Assembly: GCF_003334785.1 (NCBI RefSeq)
Contig: NZ_QOWV01000005.1
DNA: 64,000 nucleotides
Reading direction: 5' to 3' (one strand)
DNA from: Escherichia coli
Lineage (GTDB): Bacteria; Pseudomonadota; Gammaproteobacteria; Enterobacterales; Enterobacteriaceae
Shown here piece after piece: positions 9,001 to 15,000 of the stretch. Position 1 is the stretch's first letter; each line of letters opens with the position of its first letter. The position numbers were made by a program.

Positions 9001-12000
9001 TGCAGCAACGATTTAATTTATTATTTCCTGATTTTGTTGACCACATACAATCGCCGTTACCACTTGCATCAACACTTTTAGAGAGAATTACATTTTATGC
9101 GAAAAAAAATAGAGATGAGCTTGATAAAATCTCCTGCAAATGGTGTTGTGATTAAAAGAAAAATTTCTGATGGATTGAAAGAAATAGTTTCTCTTAAAGA
9201 AAAAATCCTTCTTGAAACCACCGCAAAAATTCAGAGTATTGAGGAAAAGAGAGAAGAAAAATTTATTCAAGGTTATTATGATGGCTATACAAAAGGCATT
9301 ATTGATGAGATGGATAATTTTATACCCTTGATAAGCTTGCTATGCTCAGAACTTGAAAAAAAAAGAATAAACATGATAAACGATCTGAAGAGTATATTGT
9401 TAAAACCTTCAGAAGAAGTTGATGTTTTTATCAAAATTTTTGAAAGTTGGGTAACAAAATTACCATCAATATCAGGTCCTGTAAATCTCCATATACCTAC
9501 CAGTTTCAAAGATAAGTCTCTTGAAGTAGAGTCATATTTTGTCGACAAATCAATATGGAATGTCCATATTACATTTCATGATGATAAGCGTTTTGTGTTT
9601 TTTACCGATCAATTTATTGCTGAATTTAGTCCGCAGGAATTTGTGGATAATTGTGAGCAATATTTAATTAATAATCATTGTTTCTCCCCTGACAAGGTTA
9701 ACGAAATCTGCGAACAAGCCAGACATTATTTAGTTGAAAAAATGTTTGAAACACATTCTTTGGATATGAATAATTCTGTTTTGGCAAGCCCTGAGGACTT
9801 ATAGCTCCCTGGCTCAAGTTTAATGATTTGAATATAATCTAATTGTAATATTTTAATCATCTCATGATTTTTTAATGCCTGTGGTATTTTTTTACGCAAA
9901 AATTTTATTTTTAATTATATTTCATTATTATTTCATCAATGTATTCTTTGGATTTTGCTTATAATAATAATGGAAGGGATGATTATAAATGAATGCGTTA
10001 AAGCATTTACACTCAGGATGAATATATGGGAAAAATTAAAATTATAGTTTCAGATCAGCAGCCGTTTATGATTGATGGGATAATTGGATTTCTCGGACAT
10101 TATCCTGATTTATATGAGGTTGTTGGGGGCTATAAAGATCTGAAGAAAGCTATAGCGGAGTGTAACAAATCTACAGCCTAAATATTTATTTTAGGAGAAT
10201 TTGCAGGTGGAATGATGGGGGCCGAACTCGTAAAATGGGTTAAATCGCATAAGATAGATGCTCATATTATTACATTTGTAGCAAAGATGCCGTATATTGA
10301 TTCAATAAAATTGCTTGAAGCAGGTGCGAAAGGATGCGTATGGAAAACCAGTCACCCGGCGAAACTAAATCGTGCTATTGATTCGATTAGTAATGGTTAC
10401 ACTTATTTTGATAGTGTACATATGGATTGTGAAAAAATATCTTCCAGGTATTCCTCTGATAATCAACTTACAAATCGTGAGTCAGAAATATTACAACTCA
10501 TAGCTGATGGTAAAACAAACAAAGAAATCGCTAATTTCTTGCAGTTAAGCAGGAAAACAGTCGAAACTCATAGACTCAATATCATGAAGAAATTAGATGT
10601 TCACAGTGGTATCGAGTTGATCAAAACAGCTTTACGTATGGGTGTTTGCACTATATAAAAAAAAGAGGCTTTAGGCTCATTTTGCTGAAGCCTTACGATT
10701 GTCTAGTTCATTAAGCCTGGTATATACAATATATATTTTGGGGCATATTGCTGTCTCTTTTTTTGGTTATCCATTGCAAAACCCGCATTATAAGTCCCCA
10801 GGCATTGCCACGTTACTCCACAACGTGAAAAATGGTTATATAAAATCTCGGTTCCTATTTTAATGTTCAGACAAGGGTTATCTAACAAATCTCGTTCATC
10901 TTTTATTATTCCACGTTTTTTTAACAGGGGAATATGCATCTGGTTTATCTGCATTAACCAATAATCTAAACTCTTTATATTGTTATTCTTATCTCTGTTC
11001 TTGCCTATGCTATCCTTTTTTAGATTGCTTTCAACAAGAGCGATAGCTTTAATTAAATTTGGTTCGATTCTGAACATTGTTCCTGCTTCATTAGAGCAAG
11101 AGTTGCTGGCGAAAGACATTTTTGTAATAAATATACAAAACGTGAAGATGGTTAAGAATTTAACTTTTGGTGAGCGCATATTTTTTCATGTGTGAGGATT
11201 GAATGAAAGGAACGAGATACTATTATAAAAGTATCTCGTTATGATTTATTTGGTCAATCGTCTACCACTCAATTTTATAGTAAGGTGAGATAGGATTATC
11301 TTCTGAATACATATCATTTTGAAAAGGCGCCATCCATGTTGAAACTATAAATGCTTGTATTTGATCTGTATCAGTAGCACTGGTGTTGATGTGTTTATCT
11401 AATGATACGACTTCATCACCCGTTGCATTCGCTATATTTGAACTTTGAGATAAATTATTGATACCGATTGGATTAGTCATAAAGCTCCCTTTTTTAATTG
11501 TCCAGGCCAATGGTCTTTACATCATACTTTTAACTCTAGAGCATTTTAAATATCTTGCAATAAGGTGAATATCTTAGATATTTTTATCTCTGTTGTTTAA
11601 ATAACAAGTTGCATACATCTAAATAATAAAATTGCGTCAATAAAAATTTATCGCATACAAATTCTCGTCAGCTGCTTTAATTTCAAAATGTTGTCAATTA
11701 TAACTCGATGGCTTTCACTCTCAGTTTCTTTATAGTAGAGTTTAATGTTGTTTTTGAGCGGGTTAGGCACATACATATCTACACATTCTTTTATCACAAC
11801 TGCTTTTCGTCTTCTGGGTTCGAGTTGTAGTGATTTGTCTATACAAATCCTTGCCTCTTCAATTTTTTCATTATGAAAGTGGACTAGTGCCCTATAGTAG
11901 TAGAGAGAGGCTATATCAGTTGAGTGTATCTTAGCCTGTTCAAATAAGATATGAGATACTTTTGCTTGTCCAGACAGACCAGTTATCAGTCCCATAATAG

Positions 12001-15000
12001 CTAAAATTTTTCCATCGACAGTGGTTATGTCTGATACATAATCTAAAAGCTCTAATGCTTTTTGAGCAGCAAGTTCAAGTTCACTTTTTCCATGAAGTGC
12101 CAAAGACATATGGCATTCCGCTAGAAGGCAATAACATTCTGTTTTTAGCGTCTGTATATCACTTTTATTTTGTAATCTATCAAATATAGTCATGGCCCTG
12201 TAAATGCTTTCAGGGGTGAAGTCGTAAAGTTCTTTCTTTCCGGCTAACATTTCATCTGATAAATAATGATTCTTATATCCTTGGTCCTGCTTAGCTAATC
12301 TTACAGATCGTTCTGGTTTATGTACCGTTTGAAGGATATTATCTATAATAAATTGTGATGTATTATGTAGTTCATCAACAGGGAGATGATTACTGGCGAT
12401 GAGGAAAAGGTTTTTAGCGTCGATCAACTCAATGTATAAAGTGTTCACTGCATTATTCTGGTTTATTCTTCCTGTAACGAAATAATCTGGCTTGAATCTG
12501 CTCAAGAATGAATTTTGAGATATGTGATCATTACAAAAATTTGTCGCAGCTATCGGATAGGTATAGAGACCATCGATTTTTTTATTTGAAATGATTTGCA
12601 CTAATTCCTGATTAAGTATTAATGGATCCAGTGTATTCAATGAAGTAGTGAAAGGGAATATAGCTATGGAATAGTCTGAAGTATTATCTTCATTAATTTT
12701 AGTTTTGAAAACCTGCCCGCTGAAACGATAACCTTTCCGGTAGATTGTTTCTATGCAACGATCATAGCCAATTTTTTCAAAAATGCAGCGCAAAGAATAG
12801 ATACATCTTGTCAGGGACTCGTCACTAACAATAATATTTTTCCATACTGATTCGATGATCATATCTTTCAGTACAACATGACCAGCGGATTCAAGTAATA
12901 CTATTAATACACCTAACTCTTTCTGTGGAATATAAACTTGCTCATTTCCTTGAGTAAGAATTCCATCTTCCGTGAGCGTTAATCCCTCAAGAAAATGATA
13001 TGAGAATTTATTTTCTAAGTCCATTAGTTAACCTCTATGAAAAAATTGGTTTCTTGCATCCTGCTTAAGCAATAGAAATTATGGCTATTCATATTTATGT
13101 GTCATTAACGCTACAGGAAATTATATTTGACATATCTATGGTTGTGTTCACTAATTTATCTTAGGAATTCAGTGATGTAATCTGAAATAGCCTTATTCAA
13201 TTTTGATAAAGTAGATTGTTCTCTAACGCATTGAAAAATAATGATTTATAGTATGCTCTTAACTGTTTTAAGATGCTGATTTAAGAAAACATAAGAGGTG
13301 CTGGTTATAGTGGTTAACTGCACTATAACCAGCAAATTTAACCAAATGATTGTAATTCTTAGCCATTATCTTCTGAATTATCGTTTAAGAGTTCAATATA
13401 TGCCTGCGCTTTACTCTTAACACTATCATCCTCACAATTGTTAATAATGTGATAGAAACATTGCATTGCGTTATCGATATTTTTAGCCCCAATCTGACAT
13501 TGACCCATACGATAAATAACTGAATAGTCATCATACGGGAAGTAATTGTAACTTAGTTTGTAAAGGTCATATGCTTGTTGATATTTCTTTTTGGGCTGAC
13601 ATACTGATGCAAAATCTTTTAGATACTCATGATTTTCGAACGCATAAATGCACAAGAATTTATAATAAATTTCTGCGTCCGTTATATTACCCTTTTCATG
13701 GTAGTCGAATGCATATGCATATATTCTATCAAGGATATCAGGAGTTAAACCATGTAGTAATGCCAGATTTTCTCCTTTCGATAATGCGTGTTTTAGTTGA
13801 TTTGCCCATTCATCACTATTATTGAATATTTCAATTGTTTCTGTGCTCATAATATTCCTCTGTGATGTGTCTCGTGATGCCAAATTATTATTGATTGACT
13901 CATTGATATTTTTATATTTATCTTTTTTAAATTATGAGTTTTAAGCTTGCATTGCTTATGGTATATTTTTCATTATTGGTAAAAGTACTGTTCACTACAA
14001 ACTAATAACATCATTAGTTGTTTTACTAATATTCACCTTATTAGTTATCTTAATTACGACATTACATAAATGCCTTAATGTGTATGACCTGGATTCATAG
14101 TATCAATTGCCATTTTTTCAATGAAAATTAAAAAGGGGATTTTTGAGAAGGGTAGAATGTCGTTTGTTTTTTTCTTTATTATGTCTGGTGACGCGGGGGG
14201 ATAGAACGTCTGTGCATATAGTAGTGAATTTATTCAGGTCTACATTATTCTCTATTTTGGTCAGTTTTATGAGTTCATTTACAGCCATACTCATTAAATC
14301 ATCTGTTATCGAAAATTTATATATGCTCATAGCAGATAATATTGCTTGCTGAATTATCTCTTCAGAAATATCCGCTATCTTTATTGACAAATCATGTGTT
14401 AGATATTTTCCTCCAAGAGATTCTTGTTCAATATAATTTAAACCAGACCCCATTGTGATTTTAACTGGATTAACGGATTTCTCTTCATTTTTCTTATTTT
14501 TGTTCTCCTGATCAGGAACTAATGGTTGCAGTGGTAGGCTATTATTAATATTTCGTGGCTTCATTTTACATTTCTCTCATTTGATTAGAGCAAAATCCGA
14601 ATTCGCAGCTTCTGATAATGTCAAATATCACCTTATGGAGACGTTACGTAGAATGACTATATTTGTTATCGGCACATTAGGGGTATTAATTTTAGTATTG
14701 ATGGAAGGTGATTATTGAACAGTAACATCGAGTCACGGTAAAAATGTGAGGTATACAATGGACATTGAATTTTCGCAGATTCATGAAATGGTCTATATGC
14801 ATGATATTGTAAATTCGGACTCGAAAAAGAAACCAAGGATTCCGTTAAAAAAATTCCTTAATGCTGAGAATGTTCTCACGCAAACAACATCATGGACATT
14901 AAATTCAAGATATGTGAATGTTAATTCTGTCAATAAAGTCAACGTAAAGAGTAAAGTTAAAAACAGTTATATCTCACGATCTGTCAATGATGAGTTTAGT

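Follow-up and report, generated by a model that had tools for sequence, protein, structure and literature searches.

Why should a type III secretion island that has lost much of its apparatus still carry a HilA-like regulator and a translocator chaperone in open reading frames (ORFs)? The question is raised by a stretch of 64,000 nucleotides from Escherichia coli (contig NZ_QOWV01000005.1 of assembly GCF_003334785.1; hereafter the window), in which five co-oriented ORFs, pbl, ygeI, ygeH, ygeG and ygeF, lie on the minus strand between positions 10703 and 14564. An earlier note, made from the sequence alone, likened this block to hilA-iagB of pathogenicity island 1 in Salmonella (SPI-1), regarded its chaperone as an orphan and suggested that regulators and chaperone may be retained for regulatory cross-talk. 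We put the probability at roughly 0.8 that the block is instead a degenerate regulatory and accessory remnant of the second type III secretion system of E. coli (ETT2), in which ygeG, ygeH and ygeI are silenced leftovers that have not yet been disabled and are not being kept for a new role. Neutral decay of these three genes is most likely, judging from the lesions around them, the absence of their partners and the pattern of polymorphism. Gene identities, lesions, partner-gene absence and polymorphism were established in this analysis, while the function of YgeH and its silencing by H-NS are taken from the literature.

The region itself is the long-known left-hand regulatory and accessory block of ETT2, decayed in the manner that is usual for phylogroup A/B1-like strains. 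Descriptions of the locus, of its homologies with SPI-1, of its erosion and of a distinct site for the translocators date back to 2004, with a review as late as 2024 (PMC11068852), and ygeG, ygeH and pbl appear as sicA, hilA and iagB, respectively, in the tables of PMC7232297 and PMC3977695.

Identity and state of the block

Membership of ETT2 is indicated by the chromosomal site (yqeG-glyU), gene order, low GC content and near-identical sequence. The low-GC island takes up the window's first 18 kb, with a GC content of ∼33%, compared to ∼51% in the core genome beyond. The block is 99.9% identical in nucleotide sequence to b2850-b2854 of the K-12 strain MG1655 (ECs3707-3711 in O157 Sakai), with the same genes, order and strand, and the five minus-strand ORFs of the earlier note are real. 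Many other E. coli chromosomes likewise reach 99.9% identity. Of 5426 complete E. coli genomes, 3630 contain a match to positions 10000-15400, and in 2592 of these the identity is ≥99%. The window differs from K-12 in retaining an eivJ remnant, epaO-S, etrA, eprHIJK and orgA, where K-12 has IS2 and a larger deletion.

The apparatus to which these genes belonged is not functional in the window. The sequence runs from ygeQ/ygeP straight into the eivJ remnant, so that eivF to eivI are missing, and with them the ATPase, the secretin, the export gate and the InvF-like activator. Further, epaS is truncated and orgA is frameshifted. The lesions extend into the block and its immediate neighbor. The pbl gene (ORF 10703-11179, minus strand; pseudogene extent, 10677..11179) has a 1-bp deletion near 10741 relative to the intact O157:H7 gene and encodes 158 instead of 167 amino acids, the last ∼12 residues being altered. 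ygeF (ORF 14118-14564, minus strand; pseudogene extent, 14075..14564) has lost 2 bp in an A-run near 14165 and encodes 148 rather than the 163 residues of O157:H7. On the plus strand, convergent with pbl, the LuxR/response-regulator-type gene ygeK (etrB; 10026..10658), which is intact in O157 and D-type genomes, is a pseudogene, codon 52 being a premature stop. The two frameshifts and the ygeK stop are shared with K-12, in which all three genes are annotated as pseudogenes; pbl and ygeF are also annotated as such in the near-identical strain RM10410. With eivF-eivI deleted, epaS, orgA and ygeK broken, pbl and ygeF frameshifted and no translocator present, the system cannot work in the window. 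The earlier view that regulators and chaperone are intact while the apparatus decays thus holds for ygeG and ygeH but not for ygeK, and several apparatus genes are still open; it also overlooked the deletions in ygeF and pbl. Two of the five genes, plus the neighboring regulator ygeK, should be corrected to pseudogenes in this window.

ygeH (b2852; 11648..13024, minus strand) is an intact ORF of 458 amino acids. Its product scores 1082 bits against the NCBIfam model NF008870, “HilA family regulator YgeH” (cut-off, 800), and is thus a member of that family, while the HilA/EilA model NF009037 is matched with an E value of 9e-79 at 265 bits, under the cut-off of 589. The architecture is that of the HilA family, with an N-terminal OmpR/ToxR-type winged helix (Trans_reg_C, residues 28-101; E = 6e-12) and a C-terminal tetratricopeptide repeat (TPR; residues 372-404). 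The description of YgeH as HilA-like is therefore confirmed. YgeH of the enteroaggregative E. coli (EAEC) strain 042 complements hilA, whereas that of O157, although full length, cannot replace HilA, and its deletion has no effect on the locus of enterocyte effacement (LEE) (PMC4210603). An open reading frame is therefore no proof of function, and the K-12-type YgeH of the window differs from both the 042 and the O157 alleles. H-NS binds the ygeH promoter region and silences the gene (PMC4210603); in the window the ygeH regulatory region lies in the AT-rich interval between ygeG and ygeH (13025..13358, minus strand).

ygeG (b2851; ORF 13359-13883, annotated start 13850, minus strand) is likewise intact and encodes a 163-amino-acid paralogue of the class II TPR chaperones SicA, IpgC and EicA. 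Matches to the NCBIfam SicA model (E = 2e-34, 119 bits) and the LcrH_SycD model (1e-20, 73.8 bits) are significant but fall short of the equivalog cut-offs (184 and 104.8 bits, respectively), and on these scores YgeG is a predicted class II chaperone of a distinct subfamily. It has the size and repeat content of the class, with two Pfam TPR_3 repeats (2e-11 and 5e-11) and a weaker third; residues 21-158 align with IpgC crystal structures (E = 3e-30); and the AlphaFold model, obtained within a YgeG-linker-YgeF fusion, is all helical, with predicted local distance difference test (pLDDT) values of 75-92. The SicA-like assignment accordingly stands, but the adjoining translocator genes expected of this class are absent, the neighbors of ygeG being ygeF and ygeH. 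The protein of the window is identical to that of K-12 and carries four lineage-specific substitutions, G79D, S86P, S104F and T156N; at position 79 all other YgeG proteins, as well as EicA and IpgC, have Gly. Scans of contigs representing one genome per species, both with the single sequence and with an alignment, found no relatives of YgeG, perhaps because the E. coli representative there lacks ETT2.

Pbl (b2854) is an IagB/IpgF-like lytic transglycosylase. It matches the IagB model with an E value of 6e-31 (107 bits, under the cut-off of 208) and contains an SLT domain at residues 28-150 (E = 4e-28); its translation has an ALVES motif, consistent with the Glu-Ser motif of these enzymes, and a hydrophobic N terminus that may act as an export signal. 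The truncation spares the SLT domain as well as the catalytic motif VES, although the reading frame is no longer full length.

In a complete island, such as that of EAEC 042, the HilA-like activator YgeH, from a promoter itself silenced by H-NS, would switch on the ETT2 apparatus operons. Pbl would cut peptidoglycan locally for assembly of the needle complex, as IagB, IpgF and EtgA do, and YgeG would, by analogy, pair with the InvF/MxiE-like activator EivF, hold translocators, or both. The translocators EipB, EipC and EipD and their chaperone EicA are encoded at a separate site near selC, between yicS and nepI.

The likeness to SPI-1 is genuine but partial. As in Salmonella, a HilA-family regulator gene is followed by an IagB-like gene on the same strand, and a SicA-like chaperone is encoded in the island (PMC7232297). 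The hilA-iagB-like arrangement is nevertheless interrupted, as ygeI and a hairpin lie between the regulator and transglycosylase genes. In addition, YgeH lacks ∼100 C-terminal residues of HilA and EilA and scores under the HilA equivalog cut-off, the chaperone gene lies upstream of that for the regulator, not in front of sipBCDA, and sipB, sipC, sipD, iacP, sicP and sptP are absent from the window. Compared with the chaperone-activator pairs IpgC-MxiE of Shigella and SicA-InvF of Salmonella, YgeG aligns end to end with IpgC, but the window has no eivF.

The block is probably not one operon. Directly past the ygeG stop, a hairpin at 13299-13334 (minus strand) has a perfect 14-bp stem (−21.6 kcal/mol, z = −5.2), and another, with a perfect 11-bp stem (−14.5 kcal/mol, z = −6.4), lies at 11211..11240 (minus strand), after the ygeI stop and ahead of the pbl start. 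Both are terminator-like and probably split the block into separate transcription units, of which there would be at least three. An Rfam scan of window positions 9500-18500 matched no family, and promoter-like sites showed no excess (29, compared to 22.6 ± 5.3 in shuffled sequences).

Translocators and the eip locus

The absence of SipB/SipC-like translocator genes next to the chaperone gene extends, for this family, to the whole window: tblastn searches with EipB, EipC and EipD of strain 042 gave no match in its 64 kb. Among the 042 eip proteins, only EicA matched ygeG and only EilA matched ygeH. The puzzle of an orphan chaperone is already answered in the literature, as the translocators, with a chaperone of their own (eicA-eipBCD), reside at a separate locus (PMC11068852). 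In 042 its order is eicA-eipB-eipC-eipD-eilA-air. This locus contains paralogues of both proteins, EicA being 46% identical to YgeG and EilA 33% identical to YgeH, but it differs from the ygeG block in lying elsewhere on the chromosome and in having the chaperone gene directly before the translocator genes. The eip genes were found in 746 of the 5426 complete genomes, compared with 3630 for the ygeG block. In K-12, yicS is directly beside nepI and the eip locus is absent.

Between eicA and eipB, the annotation of 042 has a hypothetical ORF that is small and frameshifted (positions 5745-5926 of the eip-locus sequence). It has no similarity to YgeF or YgeI, and neither of these proteins has similarity to any part of the eip locus.

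Polymorphism and the case for regulatory cross-talk

The principal alternative is that selection maintains ygeG and ygeH in strains whose apparatus is dead, as regulators of genes elsewhere. Precedent exists: the ETT2 regulators EtrA, EivF, YgeK/EtrB, YqeH and YqeI do influence other loci, as the earlier note stated (PMC11068852, PMC3977695), affecting the LEE, flagella and adhesion genes (PMC11068852, PMC10463865). The proposal was examined with two samples, namely, 15 genomes spanning the identity range, whose annotations were used for intactness, and nine K-12-type genomes, for polymorphism.

Within the K-12-type clade, the variants of ygeG and ygeH combined comprise 2 synonymous, 15 nonsynonymous and one nonsense, giving a ratio of nonsynonymous to synonymous polymorphism (pN/pS) of ∼1.9. 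Four adjacent core genes have 73 synonymous and 13 nonsynonymous variants (pN/pS, 0.06), and the difference from ygeG and ygeH is highly significant (Fisher's exact test, p = 9e-9). Recognized pseudogenes in the same clade have 12 synonymous and 33 nonsynonymous variants (pN/pS, 0.71), from which ygeG and ygeH cannot be distinguished (p = 0.31). The two genes thus show no sign of current constraint in the clade, which is not proof of neutrality. The lack of a purifying-selection signal argues against equating an open frame with retention for a new function.

Other evidence points in the same direction. Two of the substitutions in YgeG, G79D and S86P, are at conserved chaperone positions. eivF, encoding the expected AraC-type partner of YgeG, is present in complete ETT2 islands, where its product is InvF/MxiE-like (PMC9241512, PMC7232297), but is deleted in the window; moreover, when EivF and YgeG were produced together, the MxiE-box genes icaR and icaT were not activated (PMC9241512). 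ygeH is silenced by H-NS, and its deletion in O157, where the allele is nonfunctional, leaves the LEE unaffected (PMC4210603). The regulator in this neighborhood with published cross-talk, ygeK, is the one that is broken here.

Several observations nevertheless weigh against neutral decay, and some of them speak for retention. ygeG is intact in all 15 sampled genomes (in one of them with a nonsense codon at position 7 and a downstream restart), ygeI is also intact in 15 and ygeH in 14, so that constraint could be hidden, while ygeF, pbl and ygeK are intact in only 4, 5 and 6 genomes, respectively. The force of this contrast is reduced in that most broken copies share single ancestral lesions, ygeF being the exception, and breakage in 9 to 11 of 15 genomes therefore represents few events. 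Between deep clades, ygeG and ygeH each have a ratio of nonsynonymous to synonymous substitution rates (dN/dS) of 0.13; values for apparatus genes between deep lineages are similarly low (eprK, 0.06; orgA, 0.16; orgB, 0.23), and all of these genes have therefore been constrained through most of their history. Synonymous diversity within the clade is very low in the ygeK-yqeJ block, which implies a recent origin of the variants, and such recent variation raises pN/pS even when a gene is functional. The samples, of 9 to 15 genomes, are small. Finally, deletion of ygeG in an avian pathogenic E. coli strain reportedly changes adhesion and espE3 transcription (PMC11068852, PMC10463865). On balance, retention of ygeG and ygeH for cross-talk is unlikely and unsupported; the reading of both genes as silenced ETT2 leftovers is preferred.

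Synonymous diversity in this segment is far below that of its flanks. Across the nine K-12-type genomes, genes in window positions 10026-15814 (ygeK to yqeJ) have 0 to 3 synonymous variants each. On either side, the counts per gene are 3 to 13 for eprH to orgB (8 to 13 where the gene is larger) and 16 to 21 for the adjacent core genes. This suggests that 10026-15814 is one recently shared haplotype.

YgeF, YgeI and neighboring features

A second alternative concerns the product of ygeF (b2850), which might be the missing client of YgeG, i.e., a small, fast-evolving secreted substrate or a partner that sequesters a regulator, its gene lying immediately upstream of that of its chaperone, so that YgeG would not be an orphan in complete islands. 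YgeF is restricted to Escherichia: in a search of 1.84 billion representative proteins, its only relatives were ETT2 alleles of this genus. The comparison of ygeF with translocator and effector families that the earlier note had called for yielded nothing in Pfam, NCBIfam or PDB with hits admitted up to E = 10. Full-text searching of the literature turned up no functional studies of either ygeF or ygeI.

Evidence that ygeF is a real gene comes from a rare divergent allele with 49% amino acid identity, a synonymous divergence (dS) of 0.81 and a stop at codon 132. The order yqeI-yqeJ-yqeK-ygeF-ygeG is kept around it, and, with a dN/dS of 0.43 and 132 codons still open, ygeF was evidently a genuine, fast-evolving gene whose last 30 codons are dispensable. 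At least three separate frameshift events have hit the gene, namely, a −2 in the K-12 type and −1 changes in the O26 type and in isolate 23S01245-7; all fall within the final ∼30 codons, around a run rich in A.

The maintained adjacency of ygeF and ygeG in the divergent allele is in keeping with a client role, as is the N-terminal region of YgeF, in which ∼65 residues are predicted to be disordered and a conserved LPLQPL stretch occurs, features typical of secretion substrates. P/VxLxxP is a published chaperone-binding motif. LPLQPL was considered as an instance of it and rejected, as the spacing does not fit. AlphaFold gave a mean pLDDT of 45 for YgeF from an alignment of 11 sequences, too poor for a fold search, and in the YgeG-linker-YgeF fusion, a crude test in which contacts could not be inspected, no docking was predicted and the YgeF N terminus remained at pLDDT 24-35, while YgeG reached 75-92. 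Together with the lack of any family match or of relatives outside Escherichia and the recurrent frameshifts, this makes a role of YgeF, and perhaps of YgeI, as a rapidly evolving, lineage-restricted ETT2 secretion substrate or YgeG-binding partner quite improbable. If there were such a role, complete ETT2 islands would encode an unrecognized chaperone-client pair apart from EicA-EipBC.

The remaining possibility, that the source strain has a functional ETT2 secretion system in which the block still takes part, can be dismissed: the window retains eprH, eprI, eprJ, eprK, epaP, epaQ, epaR and orgB as open reading frames, but the deletion of eivF-eivI effectively refutes it, and the truncation of epaS, the frameshift in orgA and the absence of translocators in the window also count against it. 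The block is thus still best regarded as a degenerate ETT2 remnant.

The divergent ygeF allele is carried by E. coli contigs with 98-99% identity to the window in their core genes, and it occurs in none of the 5426 complete E. coli genomes. The identity of these core genes led us to reject an origin of the contigs in another species; they are mosaics within E. coli, and the allele suggests an import from an unsampled ETT2 lineage. The mosaic ETT2 contigs (GCA_009799345.1, GCA_910664965.1 and two Sequence Read Archive assemblies) correspond to window positions 13830-15300 and 8650-9850, and their divergence extends to yqeK (dS, 0.43) and orgA/orgB (dS, 0.5-0.6).

Upstream of ygeF, by ∼70 bp from its start, the K-12-type lineage has a specific deletion of 236 bp between two 9-bp direct repeats (AAGGTGATA). 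Its junction is at 14626..14634, and the deleted sequence is still present in the O157, D-type and divergent (L010-type) alleles.

ygeI (b2853; ORF 11262-11510, annotated start 11480, minus strand) encodes a protein of 72 amino acids between the HilA-like and IagB-like genes. It has no match in NCBIfam, Pfam or PDB, even at E ≤ 10, and its dN/dS is 0.43.

The block is flanked by yqeH-K on one side and by ygeK, orgBA and eprKJIH on the other. In full, the window runs from ygeQ/ygeP through the eivJ remnant, epaO, epaP, epaQ, epaR and truncated epaS to an InvH-like gene, etrA, eprH, eprI, eprJ, eprK, frameshifted orgA, orgB and ygeK, followed by the ygeF-pbl block, yqeK, yqeJ, yqeI and yqeH and then core genes. 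The InvH-like gene is an ORF of 97 amino acids (4990-5283, minus strand) that adjoins etrA, is annotated as “invasion protein” and has a weak match to the InvH C terminus (E = 1.4e-7). InvH is the SPI-1 lipoprotein, and this ORF may be a remnant of the ETT2 pilotin.

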